In this document: positions 2,414 through 46,823 of the stretch, piece by piece
Numbering within the stretch: position 1 is the stretch's first letter
Layout: every line of letters starts with the position of its first letter
NCBI GenBank assembly: GCA_963843685.1
Contig: CAWJLO010000008.1
Location: 202,027-266,026, forward strand
Source of the DNA: an uncultured Chloroflexia bacterium
Lineage (GTDB): Bacteria > Chloroflexota > Dehalococcoidia > DSTF01 > JACRBR01
Length of the DNA stretch: 64,000 bases
Direction: 5' to 3'
Translations under genes and position numbers: made by a program
The notes under the pieces: model-generated
Databases searched by the model: none
Told to the model about the DNA's origin: nothing
Seen by the model: the letters and a program-made list of their open reading frames with translations, nothing else

Positions 2414-3415
2414 GTGAGCATGGAATACGTACAAACGGTCATGGCCCGAGTGGCCGCGACGAAATTCGATAAGTCGCTCGAGCCGGGTGGCTTGATGTCG
2501 GAGCTCGAAGGGCACCGCGATTTCGTTGCGGGAACGCGCGGGTCGCGGGGGATGAGCGTCACACGCTCGGCGAACCCCGAAGGCGATGTCTTGGTCGTGG
2601 TTGAGACACGCTGGGCAAACAACAACGCTTTGGCCGATTACTCCGCGAACGAGCCGAACGCGGAGTCCATCTTCCGGCGGCACGAAGACCTCCTGACCTC
2701 CGATGGCCTTCAAGTACACCGCATGCAGTCCGAGGAGACCACATCAGGCGTATCACCGACGAAGGTATACGACCGCCTTGTGCTACCGTTGGCGATTCCG
2801 TTGGGAGTGCTTACATTCGCGCTTCTCGTCATCTACGGCCTCTCCCGCATCTACCTGACGCTTCCCGGTTCGTGGGCCACCCCACTCGCCGCCGGGATCG
2901 CGCTTGGCGTGCTGGGCGTGTCTTGGTACTTCGCGTCTCACCCCGCAGTGCCGCGCTGGCAGATCATGGGGGTGTTTGTCGTCGTGCTGGGCGCGCTCGC
3001 GATCGCAGGTACGGCAGCGGCGGTGTATGACAATCAGCATGCCGAGGTGAAGTCAGTCGAATCTCCCACTCCTGCGTCAGGTACACCCACGGGGAACCAG
3101 GTCATCGACATGGCCGATTTCCAGTTCGAGGACTCCACCGGAGCGAAGAACCCCACCATCACCGTGAGCAGCGGCCAGACGACCATCGATCTCACGAACA
3201 CGGGCGCGGCGAGTCACAACATGCACATATCCAGCGCGAGCGGAGACTACGACTCAAGCATCTGCAAGGTGGGCGGTACTGACCCCTGCTCAGATCCAGC
3301 CCTCATCACCGGTGGGCAGACTGGGAGCATCACGTTGAACCTCGCGCCGGGCACGTACAAGTACCGGTGTGACTTCCACCCGACACAGATGTTCGGAACG
3401 CTCATCGTCAAGTAG
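2414..3415 (+). CDS. Membrane-anchored cupredoxin (type-1 blue copper, auracyanin/plastocyanin-like) fused to an N-terminal ABM-like domain.
   Basis: N-terminal ~110 aa is ABM-like (VLVVVETRWANNNALADY). Three TM helices follow. The C-terminal cupredoxin carries His...Cys-x2-His-x4-Met ligands (HNMHI ... YRCDFHPTQMFG). Confidence 0.75.
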   Translation: MSMEYVQTVMARVAATKFDKSLEPGGLMSELEGHRDFVAGTRGSRGMSVTRSANPEGDVLVVVETRWANNNALADYSANEPNAESIFRRHEDLLTSDGLQVHRMQSEETTSGVSPTKVYDRLVLPLAIPLGVLTFALLVIYGLSRIYLTLPGSWATPLAAGIALGVLGVSWYFASHPAVPRWQIMGVFVVVLGALAIAGTAAAVYDNQHAEVKSVESPTPASGTPTGNQVIDMADFQFEDSTGAKNPTITVSSGQTTIDLTNTGAASHNMHISSASGDYDSSICKVGGTDPCSDPALITGGQTGSITLNLAPGTYKYRCDFHPTQMFGTLIVK

Positions 3416-3440
3416 CCGAGTCGACTCTCAGGTCGAAGGA

Positions 3441-3478
3441 CCGCTCAAGATTGAGCGGTCCTTCTGCCTTTTGCGAAG
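3441..3478 (+). terminator. Intrinsic terminator hairpin after the cupredoxin gene.
   Basis: Stem GAAGGACCGCTCA / TGAGCGGTCCTTC with loop AGAT, followed by TGCCTTTT. Confidence 0.6.
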
Positions 3479-3637
3479 CTTGGTGATGGGAGCTGCGTTC
3501 CCTCCGGCCTTGAGTTGGGTGCATTCGATGGACTCGGCTTCGTCTACTTGGCGCCGCATTGCCGGCCAAATGCATCGGATGTCCGCCCAATAGGCAAGGC
3601 CGGATCGAACACGAGCCCGGAGGAGGGTGACGGAGGG

Positions 3638-4798: not shown

Positions 4799-6721
4799 CT
4801 ACTCCGCGGTGGCCGGCTCGAGCGCCCAGCCGTACAGGCCGACGATCGTCACAACGGCGCCCACCGCGACGATGCCGACATCGTAAATGAGCCCGAATGC
4901 GATGAGCGGGATTCCTACCGCCGACAGCAACGGGAAGTACGACGGCGACGGCAGGTGGATGCCGTGCCCGCCTCCTTCCCCGTGGCCGTCATCACTGTGG
5001 TCCGACGCACCGGCTGGAACAGGGACCGGCACGCCCGTCGGATCCTCTGCGTACTTCCGGTGCCAGAAATCATCAAGCGCATGCACTTGCGGAATCTGCG
5101 CGAAGTTGTAAGGCGGCGGCGGAGATGGGATCGTCCACTCAAGCGTGCGCGCATCCCACGGGTCGTCCCCGGCGATCTCGCCGCTGCGGAGGCTTCGGAT
5201 CACGTTCACGATGAAGACCAGGATCGAGAAAGCGATCAAGAACGCGCCGACTGTCGCCATCATGTTCCAGAAACCCCAGCCGTACCCAGCGTCGTAGGTC
5301 TGGATCCGGCGCGGCATGCCCATGATGCCGAGCACCATCATCGGCTCAAACGTGAGGTTGAAGCCAATCAACATCGTCCAGAAGTGCAACTTCCCCAGGG
5401 GCTCGTTCAGCATGCGGCCGGTGAACTTGGGGAACCAATAGTAGGCGCCAGCGAACAGCCCAAAGATGGCGCCGCCAAACAGGACCTGATGGAAGTGCGC
5501 GACGATGTAGTACGTGTCTTGCTGCTGATAGTCGGACGGCACGATTGAGTGCGTTACGCCGGTGAGGCCGCCAATCGTGAACATGGCGATGAAGCCGACG
5601 GCGAAGTACAGCGGCGTCTTGAAGCTGATCGATCCGCCGTAGAGCGTCGCGAGCCAGTTGAAGATCTTCACGCCCGTCGGCACGGCAATGAGAATGGTGG
5701 AGACGCCGAATGCGGAGTTCGCCACCGACCCGAGGCCCGTCGTGTACATGTGATGCGCCCAGACTCCCCAACTCATGAAGCCGATCGCGACTCCTGAGAA
5801 CACGACGAATGGGTAGCCAAACAGCGGTTTTCGCGCGAACGTCGGTAGTACCTCGGACACGATCCCCATCGCAGGCAAGATGAGGATGTACACCTCCGGG
5901 TGACCAAACAACCAGAACATGTGCTGCCATAGCAGGGGCGTGCCACCCGCGGCGGCGTTGAAGAAGTTCGCGCCGAACAGCCGGTCAAATGACAGCTCGA
6001 ACAGGGCGACCGCGATAACGGGCATCGCGAAAATGATCAGGAACGACGTGACGAGCGTCATCCAGATGAAGACCGGCATCCGGAAGAGGGTCATGCCTGG
6101 CGCCCGCATGTTCAGGATTGTGACGATGAAATTGAAGCCGCCGGCGAGGGACGCGACGCCAAGGATCTGGAGTCCCAGCATCCAGTAATCGATGCCGTTG
6201 TCAGGGCTGAACCGCGTCAACGTCAACGGCGCGTAACCAAACCAGCCACCTTCCGGGGCACCAAGGTCGCCTTTGAGAATGTTCCCCCCGGTAAAGAAGC
6301 TCACGTTGAGGAAGATCCCGCCAAAGAGGAAGAGCCAGTAGCTGAAAGCATTCAGGCGCGGAAACGCCACATCCCGCGCACCGATCATGAGCGGCACAAG
6401 CAGGTTGAAGAACGCCGCGCTCAGCGGCATGACAACCAGGAAGACCATCGTGGTCCCGTGCATGGTAAAGATGCGGTTGTATCGATCGGGGTTGAGGAAT
6501 TGCTCGTTTGGCGTGGCGAGTTGAATGCGGATGAGCAGCGCCTCGAGCCCACCTACCAGGAAGAAGAAGAAGGCCGTCACACCGTACATGATGCCGATGC
6601 GCTTGTGGTCGACGGTCGCGATCCAGCTCCAGATGCCCTTATAGGTCGCAGCGTCGTCGCGGATCTCGCGCATCGCCTGGCCCATGGTCACGCGTCGCGG
6701 TGTGTAGGTTGCGCCTGCCAT
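4799..6721 (-). CDS. ctaD: Cytochrome c oxidase subunit I with a C-terminal two-TM extension.
   Basis: Heme-copper oxidase subunit I sequence (WFFGHPEVYILILP, HHMYTTG, His ligands). The start is uncertain. ATG at 6721 has GGAG upstream and lies 2 nt after the ctaC stop. Alternative starts are 6685 or 6796. Confidence 0.85.
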   Translation of the reverse strand: MAGATYTPRRVTMGQAMREIRDDAATYKGIWSWIATVDHKRIGIMYGVTAFFFFLVGGLEALLIRIQLATPNEQFLNPDRYNRIFTMHGTTMVFLVVMPLSAAFFNLLVPLMIGARDVAFPRLNAFSYWLFLFGGIFLNVSFFTGGNILKGDLGAPEGGWFGYAPLTLTRFSPDNGIDYWMLGLQILGVASLAGGFNFIVTILNMRAPGMTLFRMPVFIWMTLVTSFLIIFAMPVIAVALFELSFDRLFGANFFNAAAGGTPLLWQHMFWLFGHPEVYILILPAMGIVSEVLPTFARKPLFGYPFVVFSGVAIGFMSWGVWAHHMYTTGLGSVANSAFGVSTILIAVPTGVKIFNWLATLYGGSISFKTPLYFAVGFIAMFTIGGLTGVTHSIVPSDYQQQDTYYIVAHFHQVLFGGAIFGLFAGAYYWFPKFTGRMLNEPLGKLHFWTMLIGFNLTFEPMMVLGIMGMPRRIQTYDAGYGWGFWNMMATVGAFLIAFSILVFIVNVIRSLRSGEIAGDDPWDARTLEWTIPSPPPPYNFAQIPQVHALDDFWHRKYAEDPTGVPVPVPAGASDHSDDGHGEGGGHGIHLPSPSYFPLLSAVGIPLIAFGLIYDVGIVAVGAVVTIVGLYGWALEPATAE

Positions 6722-6723
6722 AG

Positions 6724-7521
6724 CTACTGCACTCCGTGTAGCGCCAGTGTTGCGGGTGTACCGCCGCGCTGCGCGCTCGCTTGCTGCTGGAGCCAAGCGT
6801 CATAGTCTTGCTGTGACTCGACCACGAATGTGAAGCGCATGGTCGCATGGTCAAGTCCGCAGAATTCAGCGCACTGGCCGTGGAACGTACCCGTCTGCGT
6901 TGCCTTCAGCCACATGTGGTTGTCGCGTCCCGGAATAACGTCCGTCTTTCCTCCCAACTTGGGCATCCAGAAGCTGTGGATGACGTCAGCCGACTGGAGC
7001 TTGAATTCGATGTCACGATTGACGGGAATGTGGGCGTAGACTCCATCCGGGTCGTTCGCCAGGATCTGAATCGGCGACCCGCCGTTCGGATTTGGGTAAT
7101 CAAACTCCCAGAACCACTGGTGCCCGACGACGTTGACCGTCATGGCGTCCTTCGGCGTCTTGCCCAGATGCACGATACCCGAGATGGTCGGCGGAACGAA
7201 GAACGCGAGGAGCAGAACCGGCGCGATGGTCCAGCCGATCTCCAGCGCGTTGTTTCCGTGCGTCTGCGGCGGCAGACCGGGGTCGCCCTTCTTGCGCCGG
7301 AAGCGGATGAGGATGAACAAGAGCATCCCCTCTACCAGCACGAGGATGAGGAGCGCCGGCCACATCACAAAGAGGAAGAGATTCTTCTGGTCCTTGGCCA
7401 CAGTGCCGGCAGGGGCGAACGTGTTTTGCGGGCTCGAGAACACGCCGCAGCTCGAAAGCATTACGGCCAAGCCGATGAGAGAGAGAACGGCCAGAAGGCG
7501 CGGCAGACGGCGATCGCGCAC
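6724..7521 (-). CDS. ctaC: Cytochrome c oxidase subunit II (CuA centre only, no cytochrome c domain), lipoprotein.
   Basis: GTG at 7521 has a perfect GGAGG 9 nt upstream. Lipobox LSSCG. CuA motif HSFWMPKLGGK...HGQCAEFCGLDHATM. No CxxCH. Confidence 0.85.
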   Translation of the reverse strand: MRDRRLPRLLAVLSLIGLAVMLSSCGVFSSPQNTFAPAGTVAKDQKNLFLFVMWPALLILVLVEGMLLFILIRFRRKKGDPGLPPQTHGNNALEIGWTIAPVLLLAFFVPPTISGIVHLGKTPKDAMTVNVVGHQWFWEFDYPNPNGGSPIQILANDPDGVYAHIPVNRDIEFKLQSADVIHSFWMPKLGGKTDVIPGRDNHMWLKATQTGTFHGQCAEFCGLDHATMRFTFVVESQQDYDAWLQQQASAQRGGTPATLALHGVQ

Positions 7522-22807: not shown

Positions 22808-22943
22808 CGGCAGACGCATGAGGCGAAGGGCGCGTGGATTACGGTTCGTTCACACGGCGCCTCGATTGAACCTGTTACACTTACTACGAACGTGGCGCTT
22901 TCAAGTGGGGCGCTGAATGAGGAGAGAGGTCCAAAGAAGATAC

Positions 22944-23810
22944 ATGGGTGCAACTGCCAAGACTCTGCTGCTGATGGGTGTGCTGACAGGCCTCCTCGGC
23001 GCGCTGGGGTACCTGTTTCTGGGCGGGTGGATTGGGCTGGTGTTCTTCCTGCTGATCGCCGGCGCTTTCAACATGTTCGCCTACTGGAAATCGGACTCGC
23101 TGGCACTCCGGATGGCCGGAGCGCACGAGGTGACGCCGGAGCAGGAGCCCCGCCTCCACCGCGTGGTGGAGGAGGTGGTGTCGCTGACGTCGCTGCCGAA
23201 GCCGAAGGTATACGTGGTGGACAATCCGTCGCCAAACGCGTTCGCGACGGGGCGCAACCCGAAGCACGCGGTGGTCGCCGCGACGACGGGCATCATGAAC
23301 CTGCTCGACGACCGAGAGCTGAAGGGCGTGATCGCCCACGAGCTGGGGCACGTGGGGAACCGCGACATCCTCATCGGGGCGATCGCGGCGGTGTTCGCCG
23401 GGGCGATCGCGATGGTGACGAACATGCTCGGCTGGAGCATGATGTTCGGGGGCTTCGGCGGCGGGCGTCGCAACAACGACAACATGCTGCTGGCGATTGC
23501 GGCGATCATCCTGATGCCGATCGCCGCGAGCATCGTGCAGCTTTCGATCTCGCGGACGCGGGAGTACGAGGCGGACAAGACGGGCGCGAAGACGACGCAC
23601 GACCCGGAGGCACTCGCCGACGCGCTCGCGAAGCTGGAGCAGGGCGCCGCGGTGCGGCCGATGCAGGTGAATCCGGCGGCGGCGCACATGTACATCGTGA
23701 ACCCGCTTGCCGGGCTGCGGGGCGCGAACATGTCGGGGCTGTTCAGCACCCACCCGCCGATCGAGGAGCGGATCAAGCGGCTGCGGCAGATGGCGCGGAC
23801 AGGCGTCTAG
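22944..23810 (+). CDS. htpX: Zinc metalloprotease HtpX (M48).
   Basis: HELGHVGNRD HExxH motif with TM helices. The start at 22944 fits the HtpX N-terminus; the alternative is 22917. Confidence 0.85.
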   Translation: MGATAKTLLLMGVLTGLLGALGYLFLGGWIGLVFFLLIAGAFNMFAYWKSDSLALRMAGAHEVTPEQEPRLHRVVEEVVSLTSLPKPKVYVVDNPSPNAFATGRNPKHAVVAATTGIMNLLDDRELKGVIAHELGHVGNRDILIGAIAAVFAGAIAMVTNMLGWSMMFGGFGGGRRNNDNMLLAIAAIILMPIAASIVQLSISRTREYEADKTGAKTTHDPEALADALAKLEQGAAVRPMQVNPAAAHMYIVNPLAGLRGANMSGLFSTHPPIEERIKRLRQMARTGV

Positions 23811-23834: not shown

Positions 23835-23866
23835 GGAAGGCCGTCGCGTCGACGCGACGGCCTTCC
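23835..23866. terminator. Bidirectional terminator palindrome between convergent htpX and rarA.
   Basis: Perfect inverted repeat GGAAGGCCGTCGCG-TCGA-CGCGACGGCCTTCC followed by a T-rich tract. Confidence 0.65.
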
Positions 23867-23889: not shown

Positions 23890-25242
23890 CTACGACTGTT
23901 GCTCGCGCTCGGCCCGCTCGCGCTTGCGGCGGCCCTCCCAGCCCTGGTCGGTGGGCCGGTAGTAGGTGTGGCCGGCAACACGGTCGGGCAGGTGCTGCTG
24001 CTCGACGACGTGGCCCTCGTAGTCGTGGGCGTACTTGTAGCCAGCGCCGTAGCCCATCTGGCGCATGAGGCCGGTGACGGCGTTGCGCAGGTGCAGCGGG
24101 ACGGGGTCGTTGCGGGTGTTCTCCACGTCCTTGAGGGCGGCCCCGTAGGCGCTGCCGGTGCTGTTGCTCTTCGGCGCCAGGGCGAGATAGAGGGCGGTCT
24201 CCGCCATGGGGTAGAAGCCCTCGGGCAGCCCGATGAAATGCACCGCCTGCTGGCACGCGCTCGCGACGACCATGGCCATCGGATCAGCGAGGCCGACGTC
24301 CTCTGACGCGAGAATGACCATGCGCCGGACGATGAACAGCGGATCCTCGCCGGCCTCGATCATGCGGGCAAGCCAGTAGAGCGCGGCATCCGGGTCGGAG
24401 CCGCGCAGCGACTTGATGAAGGCGGAGATGGTGTCGTAGTGGGCGTCGCCCTGGCGGTCGTAGAGGTAGGTGCGGTGCTGGAGCGCCTCCTCGACGTCTT
24501 CGACGGTGACGCGGGGATTCTTGCCGCCCCGGGCCTCTGCGCCAACGACGGCCGACTCGATGGCGTTGAGGGCGATGCGGGCATCGCCGCCGACGGAGGC
24601 AGCGAGCGCGTCGACGGCGTCGTCCTCAACGGTCACGCCGCTGGCGCCGAGGCCGCGCTCTTCATCGGCGAGGGCCTGGCGGACGATGCGGGCGATGCTG
24701 TCCGGCTCGAGCATCTTGAGGGCGAAGACGCGGGAGCGCGAGAGCAGCGGTCCGATCACTTCGAACGAGGGGTTCTCGGTCGTCGCGCCGATGAGAACGA
24801 CGGTGCCGTCCTCGACGAAGGGCAGGATGGCGTCCTGCTGGGCCTTATTGAAGCGATGGATCTCGTCGATGAAGAGGACTGTGCGGCCGAGACCGGCGCG
24901 GAGCCGCTCGCGCGCCTCTGCGACCGCCTTGCGGAGGTCGGCGACGCCGGCTGAGACGGCGGAGACGGGCACGAACGTCGCCTTGGTGCGCGTGGCGATG
25001 ATGCGGGCGAGGGTGGTCTTACCGGTGCCGGGCGGCCCCCAGAGGATGATCGAGGGGAGGTTGTCCGCCTCGACGAGGCGACGGAGAATGCGGCCTTCAC
25101 CGACGAGGTGCTCCTGTCCGACGTACTCGTCGAAGCTGCGCGGACGCACGCGCGCGGCGAGCGGCGCACCGGGCTGCGGTGCACCGTCAGGACCGCGCTC
25201 GTCGAACAGGGGCGTCGACTTCGGGGTCGCGCGTCGTGGCAT
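23890..25242 (-). CDS. rarA: Replication-associated recombination protein A (AAA+ ATPase).
   Basis: Walker A GPPGTGKTT, LFIDEIHRFNK, and a C-terminal MgsA domain. Confidence 0.9.
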   Translation of the reverse strand: MPRRATPKSTPLFDERGPDGAPQPGAPLAARVRPRSFDEYVGQEHLVGEGRILRRLVEADNLPSIILWGPPGTGKTTLARIIATRTKATFVPVSAVSAGVADLRKAVAEARERLRAGLGRTVLFIDEIHRFNKAQQDAILPFVEDGTVVLIGATTENPSFEVIGPLLSRSRVFALKMLEPDSIARIVRQALADEERGLGASGVTVEDDAVDALAASVGGDARIALNAIESAVVGAEARGGKNPRVTVEDVEEALQHRTYLYDRQGDAHYDTISAFIKSLRGSDPDAALYWLARMIEAGEDPLFIVRRMVILASEDVGLADPMAMVVASACQQAVHFIGLPEGFYPMAETALYLALAPKSNSTGSAYGAALKDVENTRNDPVPLHLRNAVTGLMRQMGYGAGYKYAHDYEGHVVEQQHLPDRVAGHTYYRPTDQGWEGRRKRERAEREQQS

Positions 25243-39888: not shown

Positions 39889-39954
39889 GTGCGCGGGGCC
39901 CTTCGGTGATTTGCCGGAGTATAGCGGGCGTGCGGCGTCGATCGATGGGAGGGG

Positions 39955-40020
39955 CGCTGCGCCCTCTGCACTTCCGCCTTGGCGCTCCGCGCCCTCCTCT
40001 CCCGTCGCCTCCGGCGCTCT
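39955..40020. repeat. Copy 1 of a ~70-bp direct repeat flanking the ABM gene.
   Basis: GGGAGGGGCGCTGCGCCCTCTGCACTTCCGCCTTGGCGCTCCGCGCCCTCCTCTCCCGTCGCCTCCGGCG is ~80% identical to 40476..40545. Confidence 0.6.
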
Positions 40021-40315
40021 ACGGCGCTGTAGCGGCGACGATGACTTCGCCGACGGTGCGAACCTGTTCGCTGGCGAGATGCGGGGCGACGTTCTGGGCG
40101 AACCAGCCGGGGCCGATGATGGCGCCGCCGTTCTGGGCGTCCGCCGCGGTGTCCCAGAGGATGACGACGGCGGCTCGATCGTCGGCTTCCTTCACGTAGT
40201 AGAAGGCGCGGAAGCCGGATAGGCCACGAATGAGGGGAAGGAGGCCGGACTCGAGCTTCGGGCGGAGCTGCTCTACGGGCATGTCGAGGTGGAGGTGGTT
40301 GATGACGGCGTGCAT
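40019..40315 (-). CDS. ABM/Dabb-like small protein (98 aa).
   Basis: ATG at 40315 with AGGAG 9 nt upstream. Sequence MHAVINHLHLDMP...AVVILWDTAAD is typical of ABM-fold proteins. Confidence 0.6.
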   Translation of the reverse strand: MHAVINHLHLDMPVEQLRPKLESGLLPLIRGLSGFRAFYYVKEADDRAAVVILWDTAADAQNGGAIIGPGWFAQNVAPHLASEQVRTVGEVIVAATAP

Positions 40316-40475
40316 GTGTGCGGCTCCTGCTGATGAGTGTTTTCGTACAGTATCCACGAAGGACGGGCGTGACCGCGACTATATGTTCTCAACATTTTCG
40401 CTTGCCTCACCCTGTTGTGCCGGGTGGTGGCGAGCTGAGGCGCGGATCGGTGGTGGGGGCGGAGCTGCCTTGCCG

Positions 40476-40545
40476 GGAGGGCGGCGCCTTCGGCATTTTC
40501 CGCCTTGGCGCTTCGCGCCGCCCTCTCCGGTCGCCTGCGGCGACA
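40476..40545. repeat. Copy 2 of the ~70-bp direct repeat, followed by a CTCTCCC-ACAAGG-GGAGAGGG hairpin.
   Basis: GGGAGGGCGGCGCCTTCGGCATTTTCCGCCTTGGCGCTTCGCGCCGCCCTCTCCGGTCGCCTGCGGCG. Confidence 0.6.
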
Positions 40546-41155: not shown

Positions 41156-41386
41156 TCGTTCATCGTTTGCGGTGGACGGTGACGGGTGATGCAGTGTCCG
41201 CTGTCGCGTACCCTGCATCACCTTTGAAGCGGGCCGGGGGACACCCCCGGAGCCCCCCGGCAGGGGGCGCTGCGCTCCCTGCACCCCCGGCTATGGCGCC
41301 GGGGAGTCGAGGGTGAAGGACTGAAGAGGGGCGTTACCAGCGGGGATAACGGGCGGTTCAGCAGCGGATGAGAATCGGAGGAACGC

Positions 41387-41821
41387 ATGACGGTACAGGG
41401 TGAGTATGCGGCGAGTCCGCTGAAGTTTGCGGCGGACCAGGTGGAGTTGTACGAGCGGACGGGCGGGGCCGAGGGCAACCTGTTGATGGGGAAGCCTGTG
41501 GTGATCCTGACGACGCTGGGGCGGAAGAGCGGGAAGGTGCGGAAGACGCCGCTGATGCGGGTGGAGAAGGACGGGACGTACGCAGTGGTGGCGTCGATGG
41601 GCGGGGCGCCGAAGCACCCTGTCTGGTACCTCAACCTGATGGAGTCGCCGGAGATCACGCTGCAGGACGGCCCGGAGGCGCGCCCGGTGAAGGCGCGCGA
41701 GGTGCACGGCGAGGAGAAGGCGCGCTGGTGGGCGATCGCGTGCGAGGCGTGGCCGGCGTACGCGGACTACCAGGCGAAGACTGAGCGGGAGATCCCGGTG
41801 GTGGTGCTGGAGGCGCGGTAG
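41387..41821 (+). CDS. Deazaflavin(F420)-dependent nitroreductase family protein (Ddn/PNPOx-like split barrel).
   Basis: Motifs VVILTTLGRKSGKVRKTPL, YAVVASMGGAPKHPVWYLNL and ARWW are typical of the F420H2-dependent nitroreductase (DUF385) family. Confidence 0.8.
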   Translation: MTVQGEYAASPLKFAADQVELYERTGGAEGNLLMGKPVVILTTLGRKSGKVRKTPLMRVEKDGTYAVVASMGGAPKHPVWYLNLMESPEITLQDGPEARPVKAREVHGEEKARWWAIACEAWPAYADYQAKTEREIPVVVLEAR

Positions 41822-42130
41822 GGAACCGTGGGCGTTCTTCGAAGCATTCGCCCGCCGCGGCACGTGGCGGTCGCATTCTGCGAGTCGCACGACGCGGGCC
41901 AACAGGGACGATGAGCCTTCCGCCGAGCTCGCAGTGATTGCGTCAGCCGCGCTGTGGTGTGAGGGTGTAGATGTGGGTTTTAGAGGCATTCGCTGTCGTG
42001 GTTGGCGGTGACCCGTACACCACGACCCAACGCCCCGCATTCTCCTCGCTGACGCGGGAGACGAGCGCTCTCCGCTGATGCTCTTGGGTAACATGGGCTG
42101 GTAGATCCGTAGACCCAGTGCGGGTGCAAC

Positions 42131-42910
42131 ATGAACGACAACAAGGCGACGTGGACCCGACTCCGCTTGTTCAACGCGCTCATGGCGCTCGTTCACAGTG
42201 GCCAAGGCATCGCCATCCTCCTACTGAGTAACGAGGCCACGGTCCCAGTTCGGACGTCGTTTCTCCGCTTCAACGAGGGGCAGCAGGCACTCGAGACGTA
42301 CACGCGCGACGTGTTCGATCTGCAGCTGGCACCCCTGGTCGCGGCGTTTCTCTTCATTTCGGCGATCGCCCACGCCCTGGTCGCCCTTCCCCGGGTGTTT
42401 GGATGGTACGTCGCCAACGTGCAGCGCTCGATCAACTACGTCCGCTGGTGGGAATACGCCGCGAGCGCGTCTCTCATGATCGCCGTGATCGCGATGCTTA
42501 CGGGGATGTACGACCTTGGCAGCCTCATCCTCATCTTCTCGCTGAATGCGACGATGCTGCTGTTCGGGTTGTTGATGGAGACGCAAAACCGGCCCGGCAA
42601 CCGGGTCACGTGGCTCCCGTTCGTGTTCGGCTGTATGGCGGGTACCGTGCCGTGGGGCGTCATCGCCCTCTATTTGTGGTCGCCGGGCACGGGCCCCGGA
42701 GAGCCGCCCGCGTTCGTATACGCGATCTTCTTCTCTCTGTTTGTCTGGTACTCGCTCTTCGCCCTCAATATGTGGCTCCAGTATCGCCGCGTAGGCCCAT
42801 GGCGGGACTACGTGTTCGGCGAGTACGGATACATCGTACTTAGCCTGACGGCGAAGTCGCTCCTCGCATGGCAGGTCTTCGCGGGCGCCCTTACGCTACC
42901 CGTAAATTGA
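42131..42910 (+). CDS. Heliorhodopsin (7TM retinal protein, inverted topology).
   Basis: Block-by-block similarity to the prototype heliorhodopsin 48C12 (SINYVRWWEYAASASLMIAVIA; NATMLLFGLLME; LPFVFGCMAGTVPWG; FVYAIFFSLF; YIVLSLTAKSLLAWQVFAG carries the Schiff-base Lys in TM7). Length 259 aa. Confidence 0.9.
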   Translation: MNDNKATWTRLRLFNALMALVHSGQGIAILLLSNEATVPVRTSFLRFNEGQQALETYTRDVFDLQLAPLVAAFLFISAIAHALVALPRVFGWYVANVQRSINYVRWWEYAASASLMIAVIAMLTGMYDLGSLILIFSLNATMLLFGLLMETQNRPGNRVTWLPFVFGCMAGTVPWGVIALYLWSPGTGPGEPPAFVYAIFFSLFVWYSLFALNMWLQYRRVGPWRDYVFGEYGYIVLSLTAKSLLAWQVFAGALTLPVN

Positions 42911-43047
42911 CCCTGTTGCCGGCGCGCTCCCCAATACGAACGACCTGACCGCGAGCGGGCTCGACACAGCTTGTTCGCGAATCCGCGACGCCGAGCAGAA
43001 CGCGAAACTCAGGATCCACCCAGCTCCTCCGGCCAGCGCGCAATACT

Positions 43048-43944
43048 GTGCCGGTGAGGCGATTCGGAGTCCTGGTGTTGGCGCTGTCCCTGGCGGCGTG
43101 CACTCCGCAGGGGAGGCCGGCCTCTACGCCGGCCAATCCCACTACCGCGGGGACAACCGCGCGGCCGACGGAGGCGAGCGCGGGCACTGTGCCGCCACCG
43201 CGCTCCACCAGCACAACCGGCAGGGTCGTCGGTCCGATCAGCCAAGCAGAGGCACTTGACGGGCACCTGCCGATCCACGGACTCGCGCTCGTCTTTTCGA
43301 CCGGCGAGTTGTACCTGTTCACCAGTCTCAGCCCGACATCCTGGGCGGACGACGAGACAGTCGTGGCACCGTCGCCGCCTGAAGGGGGACAGGTCTTTCC
43401 CGGCGCCGCGCATCAAGGAGCGCATCTGCTGGGACTGGACGGCACCGACACGTCCATCGACGCGCGCCCTCCCGCGACGGCGGAGCCATACCCTCCATCG
43501 ACGACAAGCACGGATGGGCAGTGGCGACTTACGAGCGACGGGAGCGACGCTTACGTGGAAGAGATCACCAGTGGCCGGCGGGTGACGGTACCAGCAGCGG
43601 CAACCTACCTGTGGTCGCCGCTTGGTCATCTGCTCGCTATCGGTGGCGGGCGATGCGGCGACGTGCCACTGTACATCGTCGATCCCGACGGCACGACGCC
43701 GGTGCGGAAGGTCGAGCTGGGAGGAGGATCGATTGCCCGCTCGTACACGTGGCGACCAGATGCGAGCGGGTTCGCCCTCGCCACGCTGTCCACAATCGTG
43801 TTCGTCCGCGCAGACGATCTGGCGATTCGGCGGCTCGCGCCGGTTGCTCCCGCAACCCTCCTCGGCGAGCCGGTCTTCGGCCCGTGGAGCCCGTCGGGCG
43901 CATACCTGCTGTTCGGTCTGTACTTCGGCCGCGCGTGTCCGTAG
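43048..43944 (+). CDS. Hypothetical lipoprotein, possibly a beta-propeller fold.
   Basis: GTG start, lipobox LSLAAC, and a Pro/Thr-rich linker before the globular domain. Confidence 0.6.
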   Translation: MPVRRFGVLVLALSLAACTPQGRPASTPANPTTAGTTARPTEASAGTVPPPRSTSTTGRVVGPISQAEALDGHLPIHGLALVFSTGELYLFTSLSPTSWADDETVVAPSPPEGGQVFPGAAHQGAHLLGLDGTDTSIDARPPATAEPYPPSTTSTDGQWRLTSDGSDAYVEEITSGRRVTVPAAATYLWSPLGHLLAIGGGRCGDVPLYIVDPDGTTPVRKVELGGGSIARSYTWRPDASGFALATLSTIVFVRADDLAIRRLAPVAPATLLGEPVFGPWSPSGAYLLFGLYFGRACP

Positions 43945-44043
43945 CGGGCCCGCGGGGAGGCGCGCCATAGGGGCCGGCCGGCGAACCCACCTGTTTCGAG
44001 CGTGGTCTGCCCCTGGTCTAGCCGCTCCCTCGCCCCTGCAGAG

Positions 44044-44140
44044 CGTGCGGCGATGGCGCGATGGACGTTTTGGGTCGTTGCGTTCGTGCCAGGGGCGGTG
44101 TTCGCGGCGACGGTGGCGCAGAGGTGGCGGGGTCTCGACA
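44044..44140 (+). repeat. ~100-bp degenerate duplicate of the tauE 5' end (start codon plus first ~30 codons).
   Basis: ATGGCGCGATGGACGTTTTGGGTCGTTGCGTTCGTGCCAGGGGCGGTGTTCGCGGCGACGGTGGCGCAGAGGTGGCGGGG is ~85% identical to 45088..45185. Confidence 0.65.
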
Positions 44141-44278
44141 GGCGACATGGCGGTCTCGGAGGGAGTACCTTACCTTTGAACCGCCTAATCCGGGATCGGC
44201 AGGCTGTTCCGAGGCGCCGGGAATCGAGCGGCGCCCAGTGTTCGAGCAAGGTCGTCGTGAACTAGCGGAGGGACGGAC

Positions 44279-45013
44279 ATGAAGTGGGGCCGCAGACTGA
44301 CGATCGCCTTCTTGCTGGTGGCGCCGATCTTCCTGCTGGGCGCACGATGCATCGACCACGAGAGTCTACGAAAAGGCCCTGACGGCGATTGGCACCTGTA
44401 CGGTGAGATCCACAACGACACGAACGTCCAGGGCACGCAGATCCTCCTCCAGGGGACGCTGTACGATCCCTCCGGCAGGGTGATGGCTGTCGGTCAGACG
44501 TATATCTGTCCAGGGGATCTGTCGCCGGGCACGTTTTCGGTCTACGACATCCGGTTCAAGGACTCTTCGGCGATCGTTGGGCCCTTTGCACGCAAGATCA
44601 ACGTGCTGAGCGGCAAGGCGGTCCCAGAACATCTTCCGCCGCTGCCGGTGACCGACGTCAACTTCACGACCACGGCAACCCGAGCCTTCGACGGATCGGT
44701 GAACTGGGAGATCGTCTTCAAGTACTCACCGCCGCTGACGGGCCCGGTTTCGTCGGGGTCCATGGCTGGCTGCGTGGCGTTCTACGATGCTTCGGGCAAC
44801 GTCGTTTCGGTGGAGGGTCCGGACACACCGGGTATCGGAGGGTTCCACATCTCGGGTTACAGCCAAATCGTACGTGACATGGACCCGACCGTCCCGGCCG
44901 ACGCGGTTTCCTTCCGCGGGTTGTTCTGGTTTCCCCATTCGGACAGCGCTTTCTTCGAGTCCGACTATGCGCCCGTGATCTCCGACGCGGTCACGATCCC
45001 GGCAGAACCGTAG
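44279..45013 (+). CDS. Hypothetical secreted protein (244 aa).
   Basis: Signal peptide MKWGRRLTIAFLLVAPIFLLGARC. SD GAGGGACGGAC ATG. Beta-rich composition. Confidence 0.65.
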   Translation: MKWGRRLTIAFLLVAPIFLLGARCIDHESLRKGPDGDWHLYGEIHNDTNVQGTQILLQGTLYDPSGRVMAVGQTYICPGDLSPGTFSVYDIRFKDSSAIVGPFARKINVLSGKAVPEHLPPLPVTDVNFTTTATRAFDGSVNWEIVFKYSPPLTGPVSSGSMAGCVAFYDASGNVVSVEGPDTPGIGGFHISGYSQIVRDMDPTVPADAVSFRGLFWFPHSDSAFFESDYAPVISDAVTIPAEP

Positions 45014-45096
45014 CGCCGACTCTGTCCTCGGCCTGACGCCCAGCCGCCCGGCGGACGGCGCTACCTTCGCGTGAGCGCATCCGGCAGTATGGCGCG

Positions 45097-45837
45097 ATGG
45101 ACGTTTGGATCGTCGTGGTTGTGCTGGCGGCAGTGTTCGTGGCGACGGTGGCGCAGACGGTGGCGGGGTTCGGGTTCGCGCTGATCGTGGTGCCGGCGTT
45201 CGTGGCGGTGCTGGACGTGCGGGACGCGATCGTGCTGACGACGCTCGTCGGGATCATCAACAACGGCGTGCTGGCGTTCACGACGCGGCGTCACGTGCCG
45301 TGGGGGACGGTGACGCCGATGCTGCTCGGGGCGGCCGCGGGGATGCCGGTGGGGCTGGCGGTGCTGCTGCTGGCGCCGGCGGACGCGATCCGGATCAGCG
45401 TCGGGGTGGCGACGATCGTGATCGCGGGGGCGCTGGCGCGCGGGCTGCGGTTCCGGGACGCGAGCGTGGTGGCGGCGGCGACGGCGGGCGGGATCTCGGG
45501 GCTGCTGAACACGAGCGTGGGGATCAACGGGCCGCCGGTGGCGCTGTACCTGCAGGGGCGGGAGCTGCCGCACGGCGAGTTTCGGGGGGCGCTGGCGGTG
45601 TTCTTCGTCGTGAGCAACGTGATCGCGATCGCGATCTTCGTCGTCTCGATGATCATCACGTCGACGGCGCTGGCGCTGTGGGCGGCGGCGGTCCCGGCGG
45701 TGGGTGTGGGGAGCTTCGTGGGGCACCGGCTGGTGCATCGGGTGAACCCGGTGGTGTTCCGGCGGCTGGTGTACGTGTTGCTGCTGGCGTCGGCGCTGTC
45801 GGCTATCGGGTCGTCGGTGGCGCGAATGGCGGGGTGA
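45097..45837 (+). CDS. Sulfite exporter TauE/SafE family membrane protein.
   Basis: Eight TM helices with the TauE-type internal repeat (VAGFGFALIVVP..., GGISGLLNTSVGINGPPVALYL). Confidence 0.8.
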   Translation: MDVWIVVVVLAAVFVATVAQTVAGFGFALIVVPAFVAVLDVRDAIVLTTLVGIINNGVLAFTTRRHVPWGTVTPMLLGAAAGMPVGLAVLLLAPADAIRISVGVATIVIAGALARGLRFRDASVVAAATAGGISGLLNTSVGINGPPVALYLQGRELPHGEFRGALAVFFVVSNVIAIAIFVVSMIITSTALALWAAAVPAVGVGSFVGHRLVHRVNPVVFRRLVYVLLLASALSAIGSSVARMAG

Positions 45838-45937: not shown

Positions 45938-46823
45938 ATGGCGCCACTTCTCCTCCATCTCGGCGGAACGTCGACGACCACCTGGTGGCACTGGCCGGTG
46001 CGAGCCGACGTGATCATGACGTGCCTCGTCATGCTGGCGGCGTACTTCTACGTGATCACGCAGCTGCGGGAGGTCTGGTCGGACGCGGGGCGCGTGCGGC
46101 GGTCGCAGATCGCGTGTTTCGTGACGGGCGTGCTGGTGATGTACCTGGCCACCGGCTCGCCGATCGACACGGTAGGCGACAACTTCCTGTTGGCGGCGCA
46201 CATGCTGCAGCACATGCTGCTGCTCTTCGTGGTGGCGCCGCTGCTGCTCGCGGGGACGCCAACGTGGGTGTGGCAGCGGATGCTGCGGCGGCCGAGCCGT
46301 GCTGCGCGTGGCGAAGGTGATCGTGCATCCGGTGATGGCGCTGGCGATCGTCTCAGGGACGTTCATCGCGGTGCACCTGCCGGCGGTGCTGGACTTCCAG
46401 CTACAGCACGACTCGGCGCACCTGTTCGGGCACATCGCGCTGACGGCGGCCGGGTTCGTGCTGTGGTGGCCGGTGCTGAGCACGGTGCCGGAGTTGCCGC
46501 GGAGCTCGTACCCGGTGCAGATCGCGTACCTGTTCGTGCAGTCGCTGGCGCCGTCGATCCTGGCGTCGTTCGTCACGTTCGCGGACGGGGCGGTGTACTC
46601 GTTCTACGCGCAACAGCCGCGGCTGTGGGGGCTCTCGGCGGTGACGGACCAGCAGATCGCGGGGGGCATCATGAAGCTCTTCGGGCTGGTGGCGACGTGG
46701 TGGTTCATCGCGCTGGCGTTCCATCGCTGGTATCGCCTGGAGACGCAGGAGGCGGAGAAAGAGCCGCTCTGGAGCGAGGTCGAGGAAGAGCTGCAGAGCA
46801 TGGGGCTGACGTCGGGGCACTGA
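45938..46823 (+). pseudogene. ctaG: Caa3-type cytochrome c oxidase assembly factor CtaG (Bacillus type), split by a single-base frameshift near 46290-46300.
   Basis: N-terminal 120 aa in the frame of ORF 45938 (...HMLQHMLLLFVVAPLLLAGTPTWVWQRML). The C-terminal 175 aa in the frame of ORF 46299 (VLRVAKVIVHPVMALAIV...) continue the same family. Combined length is ~295 aa. Confidence 0.65.

Follow-up and report, generated by a model that had tools for sequence, protein, structure and literature searches.

Insertion with long target duplication (Furuta, Abe & Kobayashi, 2010, PMC2853133) describes loci with direct repeats of 46 to ~420 bp and no mobility genes, the mechanism of which is not known; the published cases were found via restriction-modification genes, whose DNA cleavage was proposed as the driver (PMC2853133). 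The locus described here, on a stretch of 64,000 nucleotides from an uncultured Chloroflexia bacterium (contig CAWJLO010000008.1, positions 202,027 to 266,026; this whole stretch is referred to as the window), is best read as a further example of this already described, poorly understood type of scar: the 5' end of tauE, encoding a TauE/SafE transporter, is present twice, once on the intact gene and once as an orphan copy, and a gene encoding a 244-aa protein lies between the two. Insertion with long target duplication is reportedly also to be credited to Nobusato et al. in 2000. Regarding other systems that leave duplicated DNA, e14 and phage 21 at icd represent integrase-mediated integration into the end of a protein gene with a replacement fragment, Campbell-type (insertion-duplication) integration is known mainly from the laboratory integration of suicide vectors, and the insertion sequences (IS) IS1634 and IS1549 make unusually long target duplications. 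IS1630 does likewise (PMC2853133), and in integrase-mediated integration attP supplies a fragment that restores the target gene (Mageeney et al., 2020, PMC7192596), a source in which icd is mentioned for long repeat blocks only.

The repeat at the start of tauE was placed by a repeat finder, MAFFT, a local aligner and self-blastn, and in the latter it is the strongest internal repeat of the window (44053-44137 against 45089-45172), with 70 of 82 alignment columns identical (85.4%), 10 mismatches, two single-base gaps and an E-value of 1.5e-17 in blastn. The functional copy (45089-45172) starts 8 nt ahead of the tauE ATG and reaches codon 25 (-8 to +76), the repeat opens with a perfect block of 18 nt (ATGGCGCGATGGACGTTT), and the copies, which are 84-85 nt long, have a start-to-start spacing of 1,035 nt with ~0.95 kb between them. 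Scoring of the 88-nt tauE start by local alignment against the window, cut into 300-nt tiles and taken on both strands, gave 54 at the upstream copy, ~10 SD above the other matches in the window (tile mean 10.8, SD 4.3), while the maximum outside the tauE locus was 22. Thus only two copies of the repeat exist in the window, and both a chance match and a generic GC-rich or signal-peptide motif, a widespread form of which would have explained the repeat away, are ruled out by these tile scores. Upstream of the shared ATGGCGCG the extension of the repeat is not significant alone (score 10, matched by 26% of the window tiles); a weak extension reaches ~-19 of the ATG (44042) as a block that is conserved in two relatives, L005 (~87% nucleotide identity) and the 70%-identical L092, and degraded in the orphan, and by its sequence the repeated unit may therefore be ~95 nt long if this block is counted. 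A first-pass annotation, made by a model from the letters of the window, had described a duplication of ~100 bp with ~85% identity; the pairwise alignment confirms this identity, far above chance, and the length is close to that of the ~95-nt unit. The ranges given there (44044-44140 and 45088-45185) do point to an existing repeat but are slightly out of register, since 44044 corresponds to ~45080 and not to 45088, and 45185 overshoots the end by ~12 nt.

Regarding the state of the orphan, this copy stops after 25 codons with no gene body behind it, its frame is broken twice, by an extra T in the T-run at 44069-44072 and by one missing C near 44122, and its ORF has no Pfam match to TauE/SafE. 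Four of its five private substitutions fall at codon position 2 (V>A, L>P, A>G, V>A), against none of the six private substitutions of the functional lineages, i.e., the tauE genes of the window and of L005 (Fisher one-sided p = 0.015). To judge from this pattern, the orphan is a dead, non-functional fragment evolving without coding constraint, which agrees with its earlier description as a decayed copy, and the alignment and the ORFs likewise bear out that a decayed and a functional tauE 5' end flank the 244-aa gene. With five private changes in the orphan, three in the window tauE and three in the L005 tauE, the three tauE starts are roughly equidistant, so that the event is either about as old as the ~87% split or involved copies that were different alleles from the start; rooting the three sequences with L092 gave conflicting signals. 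An origin from a diversity-generating retroelement was rejected, as the mismatches are of mixed types, only one of them involves an A in the orphan, and no reverse transcriptase domain was found in the window. The orphan tauE start makes a spurious ORF of 70-87 aa, and such scars can thus mislead gene callers.

The Caa3_CtaG gene downstream of tauE is split into overlapping frames (45938-46330 and 46299-46823) and is intact, encoding 294 aa, in a 98.7% identical strain (L001). The split reflects either a genuine frameshift or an indel left uncorrected; in the latter case, the two 1-nt indels of the orphan, one of which lies in a T-run, could be sequencing errors too.

Compared with the systems introduced above, the tauE locus is most similar to insertion with long target duplication (Furuta, Abe & Kobayashi, 2010, PMC2853133), having a short insert and long direct repeats, which in that class often overlap a gene end, a repeat that is unique (here within the window), and no integrase, transposase or inverted repeat. 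The repeats exceed 30 bp and surround an insert of less than 20 kb without mobility genes, and the repeat is not dispersed in the window. In Pfam scans, none of the ORFs tested, whether from the 64-kb window or from the inserts, had a domain of an integrase, transposase or resolvase, and inverted repeats that would pair the two insert ends are absent. In contrast to the published cases of this class, the cargo is an exported beta-sandwich protein here and a 252-aa protein or a PNPOx gene in relatives, the host belongs to an uncultured high-GC lineage, and no empty-site genome was found for the tauE case. Integrase-mediated integration similarly leaves a diverged gene-terminus duplicate at each end, one functional and the other a displaced pseudo-fragment, and here too the repeat at both ends overlaps the target gene and tauE is restored; however, no integrase is present in the insert or in the 64 kb, the insert is shorter than 1 kb, and the 5' end of the gene is affected instead of the usual 3' end. 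An integrative element mobilized by an integrase was rejected as a classification because no integrase is near and ~0.95 kb with one gene compares with a typical multigene unit of at least 2 kb. Insertion by IS1630, IS1634 or IS1549 can also yield direct repeats of tens to hundreds of bp, but these elements have a transposase and terminal inverted repeats, neither of which was found here, and with a duplication of 84 nt an IS or DNA transposon was likewise rejected; the copies measure 84-85 nt, and the first-pass annotation had correctly noted that the repeat is far longer than IS target-site duplications. The repeats are not attC-like, with z-scores of -0.45, +0.11, -0.49 and -1.54 for single-strand DNA folding, and an integron gene cassette was rejected on this basis and because no integrase was found. 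A simple tandem duplication was rejected because the 84 nt alone are doubled, the DNA upstream of the orphan being unlike the 244-aa gene or the spacer downstream of it. In Campbell-type integration the homology of the circle is duplicated on either side and the copies may be different alleles, as could be the case here, although natural ~1-kb circles with a gene and ~85 nt of its neighbor are hypothetical here, unlike the laboratory constructs.

The features between the conserved flanks of the locus are the following:

41387..41821, forward strand, DDN-type F420H2-dependent quinone reductase gene, the left conserved flank (Pfam PF04075, E 6.8e-50)
42131..42910, forward strand, full-length heliorhodopsin gene of the strain-specific block (Pfam PF18761, E 1.8e-96; no match in L005)
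43048..43944, forward strand, gene for a 298-aa lipoprotein-like protein of the strain-specific block (no Pfam match)
43945..44052, forward strand, 108-nt intergenic spacer upstream of the orphan (similarity to 45014-45088 no better than that of 26% of random tiles)
44053..44137, forward strand, orphan decayed tauE 5' end (-8 to +76 relative to the tauE ATG; 85.4% identity, E 1.5e-17)
44138..44147, no strand, junction from the orphan end to the DNA shared with L005 (L005 2486-3500 aligns to 44147-45164)
44148..44278 (from ~44140), forward strand, conserved 140-nt leader of the 244-aa gene (~81% identity to L005)
44279..45013, forward strand, gene encoding the 244-aa protein, an ORF between the repeat copies
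45014..45088, forward strand, 75-nt spacer now upstream of functional tauE (72% identical in L005)
45089..45172, forward strand, functional repeat copy, defined by alignment to the orphan
45097..45837, forward strand, intact TauE/SafE transporter gene, the right conserved flank (Pfam PF01925, E 2.2e-28)
from 45938, forward strand, CtaG-family gene downstream of tauE

The ORFs agree with those of the first-pass annotation (244 aa at 44279-45013 and the tauE start region), tauE itself extending over 45097-45837. The PF01925 match of TauE is full-length (100 bits against a gathering cut-off of 32.6 bits, profile positions 2-236 of 237), an identical protein record exists in a second assembly, and the ATG at 45089 lies in a different reading frame from tauE. 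By the similarity scores given above, the spacer at 43945-44052 appears unrelated to the DNA upstream of functional tauE. The homology with L005 may, by eye, begin at CGACA (~44140-44142), and the identity of the DDN 3' end to that of L005 is 95-96%. Scanning 41700-45300 for Rfam families and sigma-70 promoters returned no match.

Within the leader, a block of 27 nt (44163-44189) is identical in L005, and a hairpin is predicted at 44214-44236 (GGCGCC...GGCGCC), the pairing of which is kept in L005 via a double change from G-C to A-U, in a comparison of two sequences only. The ~19 nt preceding the tauE ATG (CCGGCAGTATGGCGCG; window 45078-45096, L092 1563-1581) are kept despite a different upstream neighbor in L092, and CAGTAT, 6 nt before the ATG, is speculatively a -10 box of a leaderless transcript. 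In L001 the spacer (404-490, against window 45026-45038) is ~80 nt longer and contains a run of N, a scaffold gap, which may point to population polymorphism at this junction or to difficulty in assembling it.

Regarding relatives, L001 has the 244-aa gene followed by tauE, and its locus ends short of the orphan copy. L005 (Logan SRR29366200) has DDN, the 244-aa gene and tauE in common with the window. It opens with 120 nt of the DDN 3' end (96% identity to the window), and its last 1,015 nt (2486-3500) align at 86.8% to window 44147-45164, a stretch that takes in the 244-aa gene with its leader, the spacer and the tauE start. From the DDN stop codon to ~44147 the window is unmatched in L005, which has genes for a 252-aa protein, a HEPN protein and a DUF4389 protein there and no orphan tauE copy; homology resumes at most ~10 nt from the orphan end, at a point that lies ~3-12 nt after the DUF4389 stop codon. 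L092 (~70-71% nucleotide identity) has a single tauE start and no 244-aa gene, and is too distant and not syntenic; the TauE relatives with 61-71% identity (P0004, L003, L004 and L092) are not syntenic and show no duplicated start. No TauE homolog was found between 71% and 100% identity, the nearest named relatives are metagenome-assembled genomes of Dehalococcoidia (48-60% identity), a scan of species-representative genomes with TauE gave only a Deltaproteobacteria match of 29% identity, and an exact 25-mer of the repeat had no match in JGI metagenomes. Exact-protein look-ups of DDN, heliorhodopsin and the 244-aa protein returned no record.

This synteny comparison, which the first-pass annotation had proposed as a check on whether 44140-45090 is an insertion, upholds the flanking duplication, but 44140-45090 cannot simply be called the inserted piece, because L005 has the 244-aa gene beside tauE without the orphan and with unrelated genes at the left. 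It is equally possible that the block of heliorhodopsin gene, lipoprotein gene and tauE fragment at the left is what arrived. The DDN-tauE interval varies between relatives, as a strain-variable hotspot. The G3-C3 skew is +0.55 in DDN, in line with the 'native' composition of the surroundings, and +0.45 in tauE, against -0.08 in the heliorhodopsin gene and -0.06 in the 244-aa gene, and GC skew is near zero over 42.1-45.0 kb with flanks at +0.2 to +0.3; the heliorhodopsin gene appears to be flexible, horizontally moved cargo. Four homologs of the 298-aa lipoprotein were found, all in unrelated contexts; the L010 copy adjoins a tRNA 3' end and csrA, and none of the homologs found adjoins tauE.

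Duplicated gene ends recur in related loci. In a survey by self-blastn of 91 fetched loci (467 kb), which were obtained by protein homology and not by repeat structure and are few and partly related, matches of at least 60 nt were considered, and three loci (L005, L007 and L022) were judged to hold partial gene-terminus duplications. In L005, at the left edge of the hotspot, ~82 nt of the DDN 3' end are duplicated (45-131 and 934-1015) and bracket the single 252-aa gene; the displaced copy has lost the stop codon and keeps a window-like ACTGAG with a collinear tail, whereas the copy on the gene body has a divergent tail, ACGTCG...AGCAAGGGATAG, which suggests that the insert brought its own replacement gene end. 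For this duplication the window itself serves as the empty site. In L007 an 89-nt duplication of 95.5% identity (310-398 and 2203-2291), covering -17 to +72 of a glyoxalase-like gene, brackets 1.8 kb with a PNPOx gene and a gene of the 244-aa family, so that the two 5'-end cases have nearly the same geometry (tauE -8 to +76, L007 -17 to +72). L022, the closest JGI relative by DDN (75% amino acid identity), has a 91-nt duplication of the DDN 3' end that includes the stop codon and has no insert (487-577 and 578-668), the two 91-nt units lying head to tail. Its 244-aa homolog (6063-6749, 36% identical) lies 5.5 kb downstream of DDN with no flanking repeats around it, and the linkage of DDN to the 244-aa gene may thus be old.

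The window itself contains a second direct repeat of ~70 nt, 4 kb from the tauE case:

39947..40016, forward strand, copy 1 of the second repeat, between pyrD and a 98-aa gene (81.7% identity over 71 nt, E 1.7e-10)
40475..40542, forward strand, copy 2 of the second repeat, matching 39947-40016

This pair brackets the single 98-aa gene (40019-40315, reverse strand; no Pfam match) just upstream of pyrD, a layout like that of the tauE case, and apart from a partial third copy at 41264-41292 no other match was found in the window. Among the remaining candidates that were inspected, the apparent DDN 3' duplications of L042, L060 and L083 are full tandem paralogs, a second repeat in L007 represents paralogous hydrolase N-termini and the L018 repeat is an internal Clp-N repeat, and the repeats of L035 and L045, both within ORFs, stayed unassigned. 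Five scars (tauE 5', pyrD upstream, DDN 3' twice and glyoxalase-like 5') were seen in ~80 kb carrying the 244-aa family, against none in ~445 kb of other fetched loci; this clustering and the size range of 68-96 nt are a lead, not a result. If the recurrence reflected an unrecognized mechanism, recombinase-less or acting in trans, that leaves a ruler-like footprint of ~70-95 nt and adds one or two cargo genes at the ends of core genes in this lineage and in the L007 organism, it would be of interest, although we regard such a mechanism as unlikely.

Our preferred reading, held tentatively and with slightly less than an even chance of being right, is that the orphan is a non-functional tauE start left as the scar of additive recombination in the DDN-tauE hotspot, i.e., an insertion with long target duplication made via a Campbell-type crossover, for which a single reciprocal crossover is the most likely route. 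The incoming DNA would have been a circularized fragment from a related strain, comprising the 244-aa gene with its leader and the initial ~85-95 nt of the tauE region, and the chromosomal tauE start would have recombined once with this circle, duplicating the homology on it. One copy would have stayed with the native upstream DNA and, having no gene body, decayed, while the other would have been joined to intact tauE, which would now be read from the DNA that arrived with the 244-aa gene. This route is preferred because it yields the exact topology, allows the copies to be different alleles and accounts for the DDN tail of L005. Several observations weigh against it. No empty-site genome was found at a useful distance, the tauE relatives without the 244-aa gene being ~70% identical and non-syntenic, and the polarity of the insertion is consequently inferred and not demonstrated. 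L005 has the 244-aa gene beside tauE without an orphan copy, so that under a Campbell crossover L005 must have lost the copy via a replacement ending at most ~10 nt from its edge, a coincidence that is left unexplained. The L022 homolog, 5.5 kb from DDN, suggests that the 244-aa gene has long belonged to this neighborhood and did not arrive recently, the crossover needs a small circular intermediate that is hypothetical here, and it gives no reason to expect repeats of similar length, as seen in five cases (~70-95 nt).

The coincidence in L005 is accommodated by a different course of events, doubtful on balance but deserving serious weight, in which nothing was inserted into tauE and the orphan is the truncated allele of a donor. 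An L005-like ancestor (DDN, other genes, 244-aa gene, tauE) would have received a linear donor fragment (DDN, heliorhodopsin, lipoprotein, tauE) by homology-facilitated illegitimate recombination, with a homologous crossover in DDN and a right end broken 76 nt into tauE and joined by microhomology just upstream of the 244-aa leader. One event would then explain the structure, the L005 homology starts where the orphan ends, a possible 2-4-nt T-C-G microhomology is seen by eye at the junction, the orphan is equally distant from the tauE genes of the window and L005, the heliorhodopsin and lipoprotein genes have the atypical third-position skew of imports, and the DDN linkage in L022 suggests that the 244-aa gene is an old resident. 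However, no genome was found with the lipoprotein gene directly upstream of tauE, the joint must fall ~3-12 nt from a stop codon in the L005-like ancestor, and an imported end cannot yield the DDN duplication of L005 or the duplication in L007, as the illegitimate joint would be on the wrong side of the homologous crossover. The pure 91-nt head-to-tail duplication of the DDN end in L022, without insert, and the range of 68-96 nt of all five repeats are instead what a staggered break would leave if its overhangs of ~70-95 nt were filled in and resealed either directly (L022) or with captured DNA (window, L005 and L007), selection retaining an insertion only where the duplication restores a complete gene end. 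No enzyme is known to make such cuts here, and the resident copies should initially have been identical, whereas in L005 the tail of the gene-attached DDN copy is divergent and the orphan window-like. In a tandem version, a 1,035-nt duplication of the 244-aa gene and the tauE start would have been followed by loss of the first gene copy, but the DNA upstream of the orphan bears no resemblance to the 244-aa gene or the spacer, and a second precise deletion would be required; taken jointly, the staggered break and its tandem version are improbable.

The foreign-looking tail on that gene-attached DDN copy would also suit a degraded element in which the copies are attL and attR, attP carried a replacement tauE start, and the integrase and most cargo were lost or the element was mobilized in trans. 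Integrative elements that target protein genes typically restore the gene via an attP fragment and show diverged repeats of up to ~250 bp and tandem arrays (PMC7192596), and in both tauE and the DDN of L005 the best-conserved part of the repeat is the end nearest the gene body. With no integrase or recombinase domain in the insert or the 64-kb window, inserts of only 0.8-1.8 kb, three targets (tauE, DDN and the glyoxalase-like gene) that would need three specificities, no tauE 5' duplication in the other tauE loci examined and no match in viral contigs, this origin is considered quite improbable. The least credible account, to which we attach very little weight, is that the structure is an artifact, the contig being chimeric between co-existing strains, or that the orphan is a functional element, either a promoter or leader of the 244-aa gene or the 70-aa ORF at 44053-44265, which ends 14 nt before the 244-aa start codon. 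The window does have apparent uncorrected indels (the CtaG split at ~46300-46330, intact in L001), the L001 scaffold has a gap between the 244-aa gene and tauE, the orphan region is seen in one assembly only, and the orphan keeps the native upstream DNA of tauE. Nevertheless, 10 substitutions separate the copies and no exact overlap of k-mer length joins them, and analogous structures occur in three independent assemblies from different pipelines, while regarding function the 44053-44265 ORF has no conserved counterpart in L005, the promoter scan gave no promoter-like site and the substitution pattern is one of neutral decay.

Read as a scar of additive recombination, the locus is a clean natural case of a single cargo gene added beside a core gene without self-encoded mobility machinery, leaving a datable pseudo-fragment and marking flexible hotspots in uncultured lineages. 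For the window alone the consequence is modest, tauE being intact but parted from its original upstream DNA; if the recurrence holds, such scars could help to uncover the mechanism of insertion with long target duplication.

Regarding the cargo, nine homologs of the 244-aa protein were found among 5.8 billion proteins, it belongs to no Pfam family, and its family has no relative in viral contigs; the distant homologs share no leader motif. Conserved across the family are a hydrophobic N-terminus, which ends in A-[RK]-C, and two further cysteines. The structure that AlphaFold predicts from the family alignment (pLDDT 78, pTM 0.79) is of the all-beta type and has two sandwich domains of Ig-like fold. 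Since the N-terminal hydrophobic segment with its conserved Cys is combined with a beta-sandwich model, the protein is predicted to be secreted and is plausibly exported or lipid-anchored; it is certainly not a DNA enzyme or recombinase and would be passive cargo.

Elsewhere in the window, a perfect 32-nt palindrome at 23835-23866 lies between the converging genes 22917-23810 (forward strand) and 23890-25242 (reverse strand) and is probably a bidirectional terminator.

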